A stretch of DNA of 64,000 bases from assembly GCF_003790525.1 (NCBI RefSeq), contig NZ_CP033635.1; one strand, given 5' to 3'. This document shows positions 755-5,039 of this stretch, in pieces. Below the pieces are notes generated by a model. That model ran no database searches, was not told where the DNA came from, and saw only the letters and a program-made list of their open reading frames with translations. The DNA comes from Escherichia coli (lineage in GTDB: Bacteria; Pseudomonadota; Gammaproteobacteria; Enterobacterales; Enterobacteriaceae). A program made the translations under genes and the position numbers. Each line of letters begins with the position of its first letter. The stretch's first letter is position 1.

Positions 755-2419
755 ATGTGTTCAATTTTTGGCGTATTCGATATCAAAACAGACGCAGTTG
801 AGCTGCGGAAGAAAGCCCTCGAGCTGTCACGCCTGATGCGTCATCGTGGCCCGGACTGGTCCGGTATTTATGCCAGCGATAACGCCATTCTCGCTCACGA
901 ACGTCTGTCAATTGTTGACGTTAACGCAGGGGCGCAACCTCTCTACAACCAACAAAAAACCCACGTACTGGCGGTAAACGGTGAAATCTACAACCACCAG
1001 GCACTGCGCGCCGAATATGGCGATCGTTATCAGTTCCAGACCGGATCTGACTGCGAAGTGATCCTCGCGCTGTATCAGGAAAAAGGGCCGGAATTTCTTG
1101 ACGACTTGCAGGGCATGTTTGCCTTTGCCCTGTACGACAGCGAAAAAGATGCCTACCTGATTGGTCGCGACCATCTGGGGATCATCCCACTGTATATGGG
1201 CTATGACGAACATGGTCAGCTGTATGTGGCCTCAGAAATGAAAGCCCTGGTGCCGGTATGCCGCACGATTAAAGAGTTCCCGGCGGGGAGCTATTTGTGG
1301 AGTCAGGACGGCGAAATCCGTTCTTATTATCATCGCGACTGGTTCGACTACGATGCGGTGAAAGATAACGTGACCGACAAAAACGAGCTGCGTCAGGCAC
1401 TGGAAGATTCCGTTAAAAGCCATCTGATGTCTGATGTGCCTTACGGTGTGCTGCTATCTGGTGGCCTGGATTCCTCAATCATTTCCGCTATCACCAAGAA
1501 ATACGCCGCCCGTCGCGTGGAAGATCAGGAACGCTCTGAAGCCTGGTGGCCGCAGCTGCACTCCTTTGCTGTAGGTCTGCCGGGTTCACCGGATCTGAAG
1601 GCAGCCCAGGAAGTGGCAAACCATCTGGGCACTGTGCATCATGAAATTCACTTCACTGTACAGGAAGGTCTGGACGCCATCCGCGACGTGATTTACCACA
1701 TCGAAACCTATGACGTGACGACAATCCGCGCTTCAACACCGATGTATTTAATGTCGCGTAAGATCAAGGCGATGGGCATTAAAATGGTGCTGTCCGGTGA
1801 AGGATCTGATGAAGTGTTTGGCGGTTATCTTTACTTCCACAAAGCGCCGAATGCCAAAGAACTGCATGAAGAGACGGTGCGTAAACTGCTGGCCCTGCAT
1901 ATGTATGACTGCGCGCGTGCCAACAAAGCGATGTCAGCCTGGGGCGTGGAAGCACGCGTTCCGTTCCTCGACAAAAAATTCCTCGACGTGGCGATGCGCA
2001 TTAACCCACAGGATAAAATGTGCGGTAACGGCAAAATGGAAAAACACATCCTGCGTGAATGTTTTGAAGCGTATCTGCCCGCAAGCGTGGCCTGGCGGCA
2101 GAAAGAGCAGTTCTCCGATGGCGTCGGTTACAGTTGGATCGACACCCTGAAAGAAGTGGCGGCGCAGCAGGTTTCTGATCAACAGCTGGAAACTGCCCGC
2201 TTCCGCTTCCCGTACAACACACCGACCTCAAAAGAAGCGTATCTGTACCGGGAGATCTTTGAAGAACTGTTCCCGCTTCCGAGCGCCGCTGAGTGCGTGC
2301 CGGGCGGTCCTTCCGTCGCGTGTTCTTCCGCTAAAGCGATTGAGTGGGATGAAGCGTTCAAGAAAATGGACGATCCGTCTGGTCGCGCGGTTGGTGTTCA
2401 CCAGTCGGCATATAAATAA
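755..2419 (+). CDS. asnB: asparagine synthetase B (glutamine-hydrolysing), 554 aa
   Basis: ATG at 755 preceded by GGAGAA (745-750); N-terminus MCSIFGVFDIK with catalytic Cys2; the ORF-track start at 674 is an upstream in-frame extension. Confidence 0.95.
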   Translation: MCSIFGVFDIKTDAVELRKKALELSRLMRHRGPDWSGIYASDNAILAHERLSIVDVNAGAQPLYNQQKTHVLAVNGEIYNHQALRAEYGDRYQFQTGSDCEVILALYQEKGPEFLDDLQGMFAFALYDSEKDAYLIGRDHLGIIPLYMGYDEHGQLYVASEMKALVPVCRTIKEFPAGSYLWSQDGEIRSYYHRDWFDYDAVKDNVTDKNELRQALEDSVKSHLMSDVPYGVLLSGGLDSSIISAITKKYAARRVEDQERSEAWWPQLHSFAVGLPGSPDLKAAQEVANHLGTVHHEIHFTVQEGLDAIRDVIYHIETYDVTTIRASTPMYLMSRKIKAMGIKMVLSGEGSDEVFGGYLYFHKAPNAKELHEETVRKLLALHMYDCARANKAMSAWGVEARVPFLDKKFLDVAMRINPQDKMCGNGKMEKHILRECFEAYLPASVAWRQKEQFSDGVGYSWIDTLKEVAAQQVSDQQLETARFRFPYNTPTSKEAYLYREIFEELFPLPSAAECVPGGPSVACSSAKAIEWDEAFKKMDDPSGRAVGVHQSAYK

Positions 2420-2432
2420 GACGTATAATATT

Positions 2433-2460
2433 GCCCCGGAGAAATCCGGGGCAATTTCAG
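2433..2460 (+). terminator. hairpin downstream of asnB (gccccgg-agaaat-ccggggc) followed by a weak T-run
   Basis: inverted repeat 2433-2452 read directly; T-tract is weak. Confidence 0.4.
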
Positions 2461-2730
2461 TTACTGGGGCGCTTGTTGATTCTGATATGCAGTAAGGAAA
2501 TGTTCCGGGTTTGCCACATCGCTGTTTGACAACTCATTACTGTAGGCCAGTATTTCATAGATTAATTTCCCACCACTATTGTTGAATTCCGAATTTCATC
2601 CTGTATGACAAAAGAATGGCTGTAGGGTGGGGAAAAAACACAAAGTAAACAATAATTGACGAATATAGCGCCACGCTGTTCGCAACCTAACCAAACAGTC
2701 ACTTTCGAGCAATTTTCCTTGAAAAAGAGG

Positions 2731-2760
2731 TTGACGCTGCAAGGCTCTATACGCATAATG
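2731..2760 (+). promoter_or_regulatory. candidate sigma70 promoter of the tRNA operon (TTGACG -35, 17-bp spacer, CATAAT -10, GC-rich discriminator gcgccccgc)
   Basis: motifs read in sequence ~40 bp upstream of the first tRNA; GC-rich discriminator is typical of stringently controlled stable-RNA promoters. Confidence 0.55.
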
Positions 2761-2799
2761 CGCCCCGCAACGCCGATAAGGTATCGCGAAAAAAAAGAT

Positions 2800-2876
2800 G
2801 GCTACGTAGCTCAGTTGGTTAGAGCACATCACTCATAATGATGGGGTCACAGGTTCGAATCCCGTCGTAGCCACCA
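2800..2876 (+). tRNA. metT: tRNA-Met (elongator, anticodon CAT)
   Basis: 77-nt sequence GGCTACGTAGCTCAGTTGGTTAGAGCACATCACTCATAATGATGG...GTAGCCACCA with encoded CCA. Confidence 0.97.
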
Positions 2877-2884
2877 TCTTTTTT

Positions 2885-2969
2885 GCGGGAGTGGCGAAAT
2901 TGGTAGACGCACCAGATTTAGGTTCTGGCGCCGCAAGGTGTGCGAGTTCAAGTCTCGCCTCCCGCACCA
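2885..2969 (+). tRNA. leuW: tRNA-Leu (anticodon TAG), long variable arm
   Basis: 85-nt sequence GCGGGAGTGGCGAAATTGGTAGACGCACCAGATTTAGGTTCTGG...CCCGCACCA. Confidence 0.96.
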
Positions 2970-2992
2970 TTCACCAGAAAGCGTTGTACGGA

Positions 2993-3067
2993 TGGGGTAT
3001 CGCCAAGCGGTAAGGCACCGGTTTTTGATACCGGCATTCCCTGGTTCGAATCCAGGTACCCCAGCCA
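2993..3067 (+). tRNA. glnU: tRNA-Gln (anticodon TTG)
   Basis: 75-nt TGGGGTATCGCCAAGCGGTAAGGCACCGGTTTTTGATACCGG...CCCCAGCCA. Confidence 0.96.
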
Positions 3068-3101
3068 TCTTCTTCGAGTAAGCGGTTCACCGCCCGGTTA
3101 T

Positions 3102-3176
3102 TGGGGTATCGCCAAGCGGTAAGGCACCGGTTTTTGATACCGGCATTCCCTGGTTCGAATCCAGGTACCCCAGCCA
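3102..3176 (+). tRNA. glnW: tRNA-Gln (anticodon TTG), second copy
   Basis: same 75-nt sequence as 2993-3067. Confidence 0.96.
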
Positions 3177-3191
3177 TCGAAGAAACAATCT

Positions 3192-3268
3192 GGCTACGTA
3201 GCTCAGTTGGTTAGAGCACATCACTCATAATGATGGGGTCACAGGTTCGAATCCCGTCGTAGCCACCA
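3192..3268 (+). tRNA. metU: tRNA-Met (elongator, anticodon CAT), second copy
   Basis: same 77-nt sequence as 2800-2876. Confidence 0.96.
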
Positions 3269-3316
3269 AATTCTGAATGTGTCGAATATGTTCGGCAAAT
3301 TCAAAAACCAATTTGT

Positions 3317-3391
3317 TGGGGTATCGCCAAGCGGTAAGGCACCGGATTCTGATTCCGGCATTCCGAGGTTCGAATCCTCGTACCCCAGCCA
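3317..3391 (+). tRNA. glnV: tRNA-Gln (anticodon CTG)
   Basis: 75-nt TGGGGTATCGCCAAGCGGTAAGGCACCGGATTCTGATTCCGG...CCCCAGCCA; anticodon is wild-type CTG (not the supE amber-suppressor CTA). Confidence 0.96.
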
Positions 3392-3428
3392 ATTTATTCA
3401 AGACACTTACCTTGTAAGTGCACCCAGT

Positions 3429-3503
3429 TGGGGTATCGCCAAGCGGTAAGGCACCGGATTCTGATTCCGGCATTCCGAGGTTCGAATCCTCGTACCCCAG
3501 CCA
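3429..3503 (+). tRNA. glnX: tRNA-Gln (anticodon CTG), second copy
   Basis: same 75-nt sequence as 3317-3391. Confidence 0.96.
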
Positions 3504-3507
3504 CATT

Positions 3508-3540
3508 AAAAAAGCTCGCTTCGGCGAGCTTTTTGCTTTT
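3508..3540 (+). terminator. rho-independent terminator of the tRNA operon (agctcgc-ttcg-gcgagct + TTTTTGCTTTT)
   Basis: perfect 7-bp stem with tetraloop directly followed by T-run, 5 nt after the last tRNA. Confidence 0.85.
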
Positions 3541-3718
3541 CTGCGTATATTCAATGTCGAATGCGATGTTGATACAGCTAATTTGAATTTGGCCCACGGT
3601 TCAGGGCAAACCAGCCTGGAAGCACACTCAGGCGCGGTTTTCCCCCTCACCCTAACCCTCACCCGAGGGGCGAGGGGACCGTCCGCACGCTTTTGTAGCT
3701 TTGGTATCAACCGTTACG

Positions 3719-4894
3719 CTACAACCCTAACGCATATTTCAGCGCCTGACGTTTCAACACGCCAGCACGCTCCGCCGCCATTAATCCGAGATTACGCATA
3801 AAACGCAGTGGTGGCAGATTATTGCTGAATCCGGCATAAAACAGATCCATACCGCTTTGCATAATGAAGTTATCCGCCATGCGCCGCATCTGGTAACGCT
3901 TGAGCACAGGATAACTGGCCCACGCTTCGCCGTAGCTGCGGGCGTTCACCAGAACGTCAATCAGGGCATCGACATCACGATAACCAAGATTCACCCCCTG
4001 CCCCGCCAGCGGATGGATGGTATGCGCGGCATCTCCCACCAGTGCCAATCCCGGCTGAACATACTGCAACGCATGGCGACGTGTCAGCGGAAACGCCCCC
4101 GCGGCAAGCGGTGTCACGTAACCCAGACGCGACGGGAAATGCTTCGCGATTTCCGCCTGTAGCTGCGCCATATTCATATTCTGCAACTGGCGAATGCGCG
4201 CCGGAGAGTCATACCACACCAGCGATGCCCAGTTATCAAACAACGGCAGAAACGCACGCGGTCCGTCCGGGGTAAATTGCTGCCAGGTGCTATCGCCGGG
4301 ATCGTTCTCGCACTGTACGCTAATCAACATACACGACTGTGCATACTGCCAGGCATGAACGCCAATTCCCGCCATCTGCCGCACCTGCGAATTTGCGCCG
4401 TCGGCACCAATCACCAGCTTCGCGCGGATCGTTTCACCGCCCTTCAGTTCCAGCTCCTGAAGATCATTATGGCGATGCAGCGCAATCAGCGAGCCTGGCA
4501 CACGTAACGTTACTTTCGGATGCGCTTCCAGCGCCTGCCACAGCGCCTGTTGCAGGACAGTGTTTTCCACCATGTAGCCAAGCAACGGTAGCTTAAGTTC
4601 AGCGGCGTCAAACACCACATGCGCCGTTTCCCACTCCCACGTTTCCAGTCTGCGGTAAGGATGGCAACGCATAGCCTGTACTGCATCCCAGACCCCTAAC
4701 CCTTTAAGCAATGATACCGAAGCCGCACTAATCGCCGAGATCCGCACGTCCGGCTGGCTGTCAGCGACAAACGGTGCAGGTTGGGCATGTTCGATAACCA
4801 TTACCGAAAATCCGTGCTGAGCCAGTCCCAGCGCCAGTGCGCCGCCGACCATTCCTCCGCCGACAATGGCAATTTCCGTTGGTTGATTTGTCAT
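3719..4894 (-). CDS. ubiF: 2-octaprenyl-3-methyl-6-methoxy-1,4-benzoquinol hydroxylase (FAD monooxygenase), 391 aa
   Basis: N-terminal Rossmann motif IAIVGGGMVGGALALGL; ORF may start two codons upstream at 4900 (ATGACCATG). Confidence 0.93.
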   Translation of the reverse strand: MTNQPTEIAIVGGGMVGGALALGLAQHGFSVMVIEHAQPAPFVADSQPDVRISAISAASVSLLKGLGVWDAVQAMRCHPYRRLETWEWETAHVVFDAAELKLPLLGYMVENTVLQQALWQALEAHPKVTLRVPGSLIALHRHNDLQELELKGGETIRAKLVIGADGANSQVRQMAGIGVHAWQYAQSCMLISVQCENDPGDSTWQQFTPDGPRAFLPLFDNWASLVWYDSPARIRQLQNMNMAQLQAEIAKHFPSRLGYVTPLAAGAFPLTRRHALQYVQPGLALVGDAAHTIHPLAGQGVNLGYRDVDALIDVLVNARSYGEAWASYPVLKRYQMRRMADNFIMQSGMDLFYAGFSNNLPPLRFMRNLGLMAAERAGVLKRQALKYALGL

Positions 4895-5039
4895 GGTCAA
4901 TCATCCTGTTAGCAATATGCTTTAAGTTTACAGGATTTTTACCCCCAAGGGCTGATAACGCTCATACTGGTCACAACGGCAGCAAAGCATTACACTATGC
5001 GCCCTGCATTCCTGGCTACTATTTCGCAAGAGCAAGTCG

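Follow-up and report, generated by a model that had tools for sequence, protein, structure and literature searches.

A palindrome between glnX and ubiF of Escherichia coli matches the BoxC/PIT/TM-ECO intergenic repeat

Among the GC-rich extragenic palindromes of Escherichia coli, REPs have a dedicated RAYT transposase, and REP stem-loops stabilise upstream mRNA. BoxC, unlike REP, has no known dedicated transposase. A genome has hundreds of REPs; the tables of PMC2267715 give 485 to 588. The motif first called BoxC in the 1990s was renamed PIT element, for potential intrastrand triplex, in 2000, and TM-ECO in Holder et al. 2015 (PMC4666352), through which the work of Bergler 1992, Bachellier 1999 and Hoyne & Maher 2000 is cited here. 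Table 1 of that paper gives 23 K-12 copies, for example CCCTCGCCCCTTTGGGGAGAGGGTTAGGGTGAGGGG, a type A copy with one mismatch; the genes that neighbour TM-ECO elements share no functional class, and the elements show no strand bias (PMC4666352). As summarised by Holder et al., PIT/TM-ECO elements show neither promoter nor terminator activity and leave polymerases unaffected in vivo. An intrastrand purine-motif triplex of the G-rich strand was seen by CD and NMR with consensus type A and B oligonucleotides only; the triplex of the isolated G-rich oligonucleotide is stable and yields to the duplex when the complement is present, in vivo DMS treatment revealed no triplex protection, and TM loci are more variable than controls (PMC4666352). 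Seen from its G-rich side, the same element is the G-quadruplex motif HPG1 of Kaplan et al. 2016 (PMC5100583), who propose a switch between G-quadruplex and hairpin. Among the papers searched, none with functional work on BoxC, PIT or TM-ECO was later than these of 2015 and 2016.

The window, that is the whole 64,000-nucleotide stretch of E. coli DNA analysed here, carries a palindrome between glnX and ubiF, in an intergenic position. We read it, with a probability of about 0.9, as a BoxC copy in the likely 3' untranslated region of ubiF that forms a derived, lineage-restricted allele and has no dedicated regulatory role. An earlier note on this DNA had described an imperfect GC-rich palindrome between the tRNA terminator and the 3' end of ubiF, and both the palindrome and its context were confirmed: the 35-mer quoted there, cccctcaccctaaccctcacccgaggggcgagggg, lies at 3643-3677, within the interval 3641-3680 given for it. 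On the + strand it is made of CCCCTCACCC (3643-3652), TAA, CCCTCACCC (3656-3664), GA and GGGGCGAGGGG (3667-3677), the blocks CCCCTCACCC and CCCTCACCC lying on the same strand and GGGGCGAGGGG being near-complementary. An inverted-repeat finder returned arms at 3643-3652 and 3668-3677 with 90% complementarity. Read on the minus strand, 3643-3677 is CCCCTCGCCCC-TC-GGGTGAGGG-TTA-GGGTGAGGGG, a C-block followed by two G-blocks, with TTA as loop 2. RNA folding of 3630-3690 placed the core inside an extended imperfect palindrome (3632-3688, minus strand) whose outer stem is formed by the GCGCGG / CCGCACGC region, and blastn matches elsewhere indicated a whole repeat unit at 3619-3715, composed of the core and semi-conserved flanks, notably the right flank GACCGTCCGCACGCTTTTGTAGCTTTGGTATCAACCG.

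The 22-mer at the centre, searched with up to 3 mismatches, had a single match in the window and no match in 100 shuffles that preserved dinucleotides; the 61 nt at 3630-3690 folded as RNA at -35.6 kcal/mol on the minus strand (z = -2.96 against shuffles) and at -27 kcal/mol on the plus strand (z = -1.87). Taken together, the shuffles and the better-than-shuffle fold show that the palindrome is not a product of chance, and the RNA folding that the earlier note had called for thus gave a hairpin better than shuffles on both strands (z = -3.0 and -1.9 when rounded). No further copies were found within the 64-kb window.

The reverse complement of 3643-3676 is letter for letter entry TMECO #156 (SMS-3-5, 695776-695809) of Table S8 in PMC4666352, and the same 34-mer is also TMECO #259 (IAI39, 665251-665284) of that table; its minus-strand form is CCCTCGCCCC-TC-GGGTGAGGG-TTA-GGGTGAGGGG. 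Since the Table S8 coordinates fall inside our own locus matches in SMS-3-5 and IAI39, this very copy had been catalogued. The element is thus already known, and so is the window copy itself. Judged by its sequence, its inverted arms, the Table S8 match and the core alignment, 3643-3677 (minus strand) is the core of one BoxC/PIT/TM-ECO type A copy, HPG1 being the name of its G-quadruplex motif. For equating BoxC with TM-ECO we rely on PMC4666352, which states it, and on the presence of the fabI (envM) copy in our own alignment. The earlier note had named BoxC among the repeat families to compare, and the comparison ended in this verbatim TM-ECO (= BoxC/PIT) entry.

The layout of the family was found as well: a pyrimidine block CCCTCNCCC(C), two purine blocks GGGNGAGGG, short loops, and TTA as loop 2, which is type A. 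The window copy shares with the K-12 copies this three-block layout, a near-identical core, an intergenic position and its multi-copy nature; it departs from the usual TM-ECO type A 'mm' element in being 34 instead of 36 nt long, with a middle block GGGTGAGGG of 9 nt and a shortened loop 1, and in its locus, at which K-12 and 99.3% of complete E. coli genomes have no BoxC. The HPG1 motif was recovered by a regular-expression search, which returned GGGTGAGGGTTAGGGTGAGGGG, with four G-tracts of at least 3 and loops of 1-7 nt, one substitution away from HPG1 (GGGTGAGGGTTAGGGTGAGGG here, GGGAGAGGGTTAGGGTGAGGG in HPG1; PMC5100583). A conserved C-rich tract just upstream is common to both, whereas the first loop differs by this one substitution (A to T); the HPG1 list, which is based on K-12, does not hold this locus (PMC5100583).

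The number of copies was determined by blastn at sensitive settings, with a 183-bp query (window 3536-3718) against 5426 complete E. coli genomes. There were 46,698 matching places in 5425 of the 5426 genomes (median 10 per genome), only 20 of them on plasmids. The whole query was contained in only 37 genomes, and its multi-copy part corresponded to about 3619-3715, the portion that bears the element: the flgF-flgG copy covers query positions 84-180, i.e. window 3619-3715, at 78%, the gabT-gabP copy 3630-3703 at 84%, and the fimH-gntP copy 3643-3709 at 83%. All the other copies fetched lay between annotated genes. For the alignment, ten K-12 loci were fetched from published coordinates, and the nine with a type A core were aligned together with three non-K-12 copies. 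The core CCCCTCACCCTAACCCTC(T/A)CCCC-NNN-GGGGCGAGGGGAC is essentially invariant across the window and these 12 other copies, whose flanks diverge, and this near-invariance leaves no covariation signal. The copy-number search by blastn and the alignment thus bear out the guess of a small repetitive element, one that is dispersed and multi-copy with an invariant core in intergenic copies; the earlier note would have given up that guess for a single-copy sequence with no conservation elsewhere, and neither search showed one. Where block 2 meets loop 1, the window copy is shorter than the others by 2 nt. At one further position it has A, which reads T on the G-strand, whereas T (A on the G-strand) prevails among the copies; its state recurs in K-12 copy #14 (aaeR-tldD), and the substitution turns the usual G-A hairpin mismatch into a G-T/G-U wobble. 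Five copies, those of the window, flgF-flgG, yihR-yihS, gabT-gabP and fimH-gntP, form a sub-family with a right flank of ~40 nt, GTCCGCnCGCTTTTnTAGCTTTGTCATCAAYCG.

The strict TM-ECO counts are 6-7 in IAI39, CE10 and SMS-3-5, 1-2 in B2 strains (UTI89 and S88, for example), 23 in K-12 and 29 in IAI1 (PMC4666352 supplement). The TM-ECO loci defined so far are 62, from 56 strains. With 6-7 copies in IAI39, CE10 and SMS-3-5, the lineage of the window is copy-poor, and the ubiF locus is among its few intact copies.

The extreme conservation of the 36-nt core among copies extends to the third block, which a plain hairpin does not need, and would suit a specific recognition site for a protein or an RNase, the alternative raised in the earlier note. 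High copy-to-copy identity is, however, also expected from recent amplification or gene conversion. A published scan matched no known transcription-factor motif to the element (PMC5100583), the lack of a common functional class among neighbouring genes (PMC4666352) speaks against such a site too, and an Rfam scan of 2400-5000 with E up to 10 returned only tRNAs and chance-level matches, leaving the element without a family; the best overlapping match was Antizyme_FSE, with 17.6 bits against a gathering score of 40 and E = 2.6. No evidence for a dedicated recognition site was found, and we hold it to be highly improbable.

We then considered the surroundings of the BoxC core. Seven tRNA genes, in the order Met, Leu, Gln, Gln, Met, Gln, Gln, occupy 2800-3503 and correspond to the convergent operon metT-leuW-glnU-glnW-metU-glnV-glnX on the + strand (ARAGORN, Rfam tRNA matches, K-12 annotation). 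On the other side lies ubiF, encoding 3-demethoxyubiquinol 3-hydroxylase (3719-4894, minus strand; open reading frame list, K-12 annotation, 98% identical protein matches); its stop codon is at 3719-3721, and on the ubiF sense strand the element begins 42 nt beyond it. A scan of 3400-3900 for promoters and terminators gave no promoter-like site and a sole terminator-like site at 3509-3534, AAAAAGCTCGC-TTCG-GCGAGCTTTTT; this intrinsic terminator is symmetric and bordered by an A-run and a T-run. This motif next to tRNA-Gln is kept in the 33 syntenic loci analysed in Enterobacteriaceae. It ends the tRNA operon and, its symmetry being suggestive of bidirectional use, probably the convergent ubiF transcript as well. 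Since no other terminator-like site separates ubiF from the tRNA genes, we infer that ubiF transcripts cross the element. Most likely, then, the 3' UTR of the ubiF mRNA includes the element, represented by its G-rich strand as a very stable predicted hairpin.

A GC-rich stem-loop after a gene is also what Rho-independent terminators look like, and the element might be a back-up terminator of the tRNA operon (+ strand) or the terminator of ubiF (minus strand). Indeed, the extended stem at 3632-3688 is followed on the + strand by TTTTGTAGCTTT, a T-rich right flank that recurs in semi-conserved form within a sub-family of copies. On the ubiF-sense side, however, AAAACC comes next after the hairpin, and the U-run that would adjoin the core stem of a terminator is missing, meaning that the hairpin is not itself a terminator. 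The + strand TTTT past the extended stem was not called by the scan and lies beyond the tRNA operon's own terminator. Neither strand of the element was detected by the scan, in which the canonical symmetric terminator at 3509-3534 stood alone, and the assays of PIT elements, as summarised in PMC4666352, were negative for terminator activity. We thus rejected the terminator reading, which retains a very small probability, in line with the earlier view that this is not a standard intrinsic terminator. The accompanying statement that no T-run is adjacent was only roughly true, as TTTT is found on the + strand at 3691-3694, 13 nt past the core and just behind the extended stem.

The distribution of the BoxC allele was then followed across genomes. 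The ubiF-glnX locus was found in 5424 E. coli genomes, and the BoxC allele, taken as a match over 3580-3725, in 37 of 5426, namely IAI39, SMS-3-5, CE10 and 34 others. For the query, the BoxC allele measures 401 bp, and every other full-length match sampled 339-340 bp, which is the K-12 length. The alignment of K-12 with the window holds over the terminator and a degenerate REP-like stretch; beyond these the two are wholly different, until collinearity resumes three bases past the ubiF stop codon; in place of BoxC, the K-12 allele has a REP (…GTCGGATGCGACGCTGCCGCGTCTTATCCGACCTACGG…). The K-12 alignment, the allele lengths and the 37-genome match delimit this lineage-specific segment, unlike the K-12 REP allele, to 3583-3718. 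The REP consensus GCCGGATGCGGCG...CGCCTTATCCGGCCTAC (a ~35-bp palindrome) is absent from 3619-3715 and present in the K-12 allele at this site. The degenerate REP-like palindrome ATTCAATGTCGAATGCGATG...AATTTGAAT at 3549-3588, recognised in alignments with K-12 and other Escherichia alleles, would be of REP ancestry; it has a diverged form in the K-12 allele, where two REP-like units stand in tandem.

Loci around ubiF were gathered from 79 species, and the REP form was seen in E. albertii, E. whittamii and another Escherichia species. By parsimony, BoxC is the derived state here, limited to a single lineage of E. coli, and an ancestor of the IAI39 / SMS-3-5 / CE10 group would have swapped part of the REP-bearing spacer for a BoxC segment of ~100-135 bp. 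The BoxC allele, at 37 of 5426 complete genomes, is usable as a lineage marker.

The 37 carriers have identical flanks over 200 bp and a core in three states. The window form is found in 33 of them; strain Rb-50 has a consensus-like core, CCCTCTCCCC-AA-GGGGCGAGGGG, and SCU-172 a 7-bp tandem duplication (GAGGGGC) in the G-block, these two strains having been aligned to window 3550-3755. Two more carriers were placed in the third state by matching length and identity. Identical flanks combined with three core states show that the core is the fast-changing part, and its variation is slippage within the repeat core. This instability agrees with the unusual variability claimed for TM loci (PMC4666352). 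The locus thus exemplifies a repeat core that mutates by slippage faster than its flanks.

Single strands of the BoxC core could fold back, as a hairpin or, in vitro, a triplex or G-quadruplex, which would make the core prone to slippage and local rearrangement. Taken further, a triplex or G-quadruplex of the G-rich strand might stall replication or repair and make the locus a rearrangement hotspot, so that the element would act at the DNA level. The window copy keeps the three blocks and four G3+ tracts that fit the G-quadruplex pattern, the slippage variants occur among otherwise identical alleles, and other strains have a different allele at the ubiF locus; consensus oligonucleotides form the triplex, polymerases stop in vitro and TM loci show higher variability (PMC4666352). 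Yet DMS footprinting in vivo gave no triplex protection, the duplex wins once the complementary strand is there (PMC4666352), the variability may follow from repeat turnover and not from structure, and the minimum-energy fold in ViennaRNA is the hairpin and not the G-quadruplex. Moreover, the window copy is 2 nt shorter than the consensus oligonucleotides studied, so the triplex data may not transfer to it. Altogether, we hold a DNA-level action of this kind to be possible and rather unlikely. As for the G-quadruplex as preferred fold, this candidate was dropped when the gquad option of ViennaRNA kept the hairpin, a calculation that is uninformative for DNA in vivo.

The replacement of a REP by BoxC is seen at other loci as well. 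At glnX-ubiF, flgF-flgG and gabT-gabP, strains lacking BoxC have a REP/BIME at the same intergenic position, K-12 being the REP carrier. A B2 strain carries, at zntA-tusA, a decayed BoxC next to which three REPs have inserted as a cluster, and three K-12 BoxC copies adjoin a REP. Where BoxC is absent, tauD-hemB has a short unrelated hairpin without REP and yjdP-phnP is empty, also without REP; the aaeR-tldD BoxC locus is stable. The alternation of REP and BoxC as a general rule was thus upheld in part only, with a REP alternative at 3 loci and not at tauD-hemB or yjdP-phnP, and we take it as a lead and nothing more. Holder et al. (PMC4666352) make no mention of positions shared by REP and BoxC. 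The two repeats resemble each other as GC-rich extragenic palindromes, in their common slot after ubiF and as predicted 3'-UTR stem-loops. They differ in that the sequences are unrelated, the element having no GCCGGATGCG...CTTATCCGGCCTAC consensus, and in the asymmetric third block of BoxC.

In the 33 syntenic loci (the window and 32 other genomes), a GC-rich hairpin was found without exception between the ubiF stop codon and the terminator, within 50-190 nt after the stop codon. Its sequence family changes by genus: it is REP/PU-like in Escherichia, Citrobacter and Salmonella, of CCCTC/GAGGG type in Enterobacter cloacae, Cedecea, Trabulsiella, Yokenella, Lelliottia and Pseudenterobacter, and of CCCGGC type in Raoultella. 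Enterobacter cloacae M-7 has a full TM motif in this slot, in the same orientation as in the window. The spacer after ubiF is thus a site where palindromic repeat families succeed one another. The constant hairpin may reflect selection for a stem-loop or palindromic repeats that settle beside terminators. That BoxC and REP share intergenic 'hairpin slots' in which one replaces the other is an idea we would give a low probability. If true, it would mean that selection favours a 3' stem-loop of any family, or that BoxC and REP have a shared targeting or insertion route, e.g. integration at hairpins or use of the REP-associated transposase.

The same data bear on a role of the hairpin in the ubiF message. 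BoxC could be a selected 3'-UTR stem-loop that protects ubiF mRNA from 3' exonucleases and is interchangeable with REP, whose stem-loops stabilise the mRNA upstream of them. The occupancy of the slot in 33 of 33 loci by hairpins of changing family, the TM motif of Enterobacter cloacae in the same orientation and the strong RNA hairpin predicted on the ubiF-sense strand would all agree with this. Constant occupancy could, however, equally come from palindromic repeats preferring insertion near terminators. The orientation of the family relative to genes is mixed, the hairpin z-scores across the syntenic loci were computed with mononucleotide shuffles, and the published tests of PIT elements, as summarised in PMC4666352, showed no effect on transcription. 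Selection for such a stem-loop is therefore conceivable, and we doubt it.

The best reading is that BoxC at ubiF is a self-perpetuating intergenic repeat with no dedicated role. Such a structured repeat would maintain itself and spread from one intergenic site to another, presumably by copying or recombination. Its only likely effect here would be that of a 3'-UTR stem-loop which, like the REP it replaced, could hinder 3'-to-5' exonucleases, and in this way it may stabilise the ubiF mRNA. For annotation, the appropriate label of this stretch is BoxC/PIT/TM-ECO repeat, and not candidate regulator, small RNA or terminator. To the question of the role of BoxC, which is about 30 years old, this copy adds only a natural REP-versus-BoxC allele pair.

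Another reading is a non-autonomous, MITE-like transposon of ~120 bp whose terminal inverted repeats enclose the BoxC core. It would account for the presence/absence polymorphism of the element at several loci; arm complementarity exceeds that of shuffles in the flgF-flgG copy (z = 3.1) and the yihR-yihS copy (z = 2.7), and the flgF-flgG unit folds as a single long imperfect palindrome. For the window copy, however, arm complementarity was at chance level (z = 0.4, with 91 of 200 shuffles as good), most copies have only a ~45 bp core in common, and no transposase association is known (PMC4666352). A search of the ubiF locus found no clean empty site, target-site duplication or significant terminal inverted repeats for the window copy; K-12 cannot show such a duplication, since its allele is not empty but has a REP in place of BoxC. 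We thus judge the transposon reading improbable. Compared with ERIC/IRU-type MITE-like repeats of enterobacteria, the element is likewise small, non-coding, palindromic, dispersed and polymorphic in its presence among strains; unlike them, the window copy has no significant terminal inverted repeats or shown target duplication, and its conserved unit is much shorter.

Two observations concern other copies. In the flgF-flgG copy of strain 119 and the yihR-yihS copy of K-12, arms of ~35 nt on each side of the core are complementary, giving a MITE-like unit of ~120 bp; this shape is absent from most copies and from the window copy. At yjdP-phnP of K-12, a CCCCTCACCCCAATGGGGAGAGGG hairpin and a BoxC copy form a 119-bp block that is missing as a unit in S10EC, a clean presence/absence pair that could define the ends of the element.
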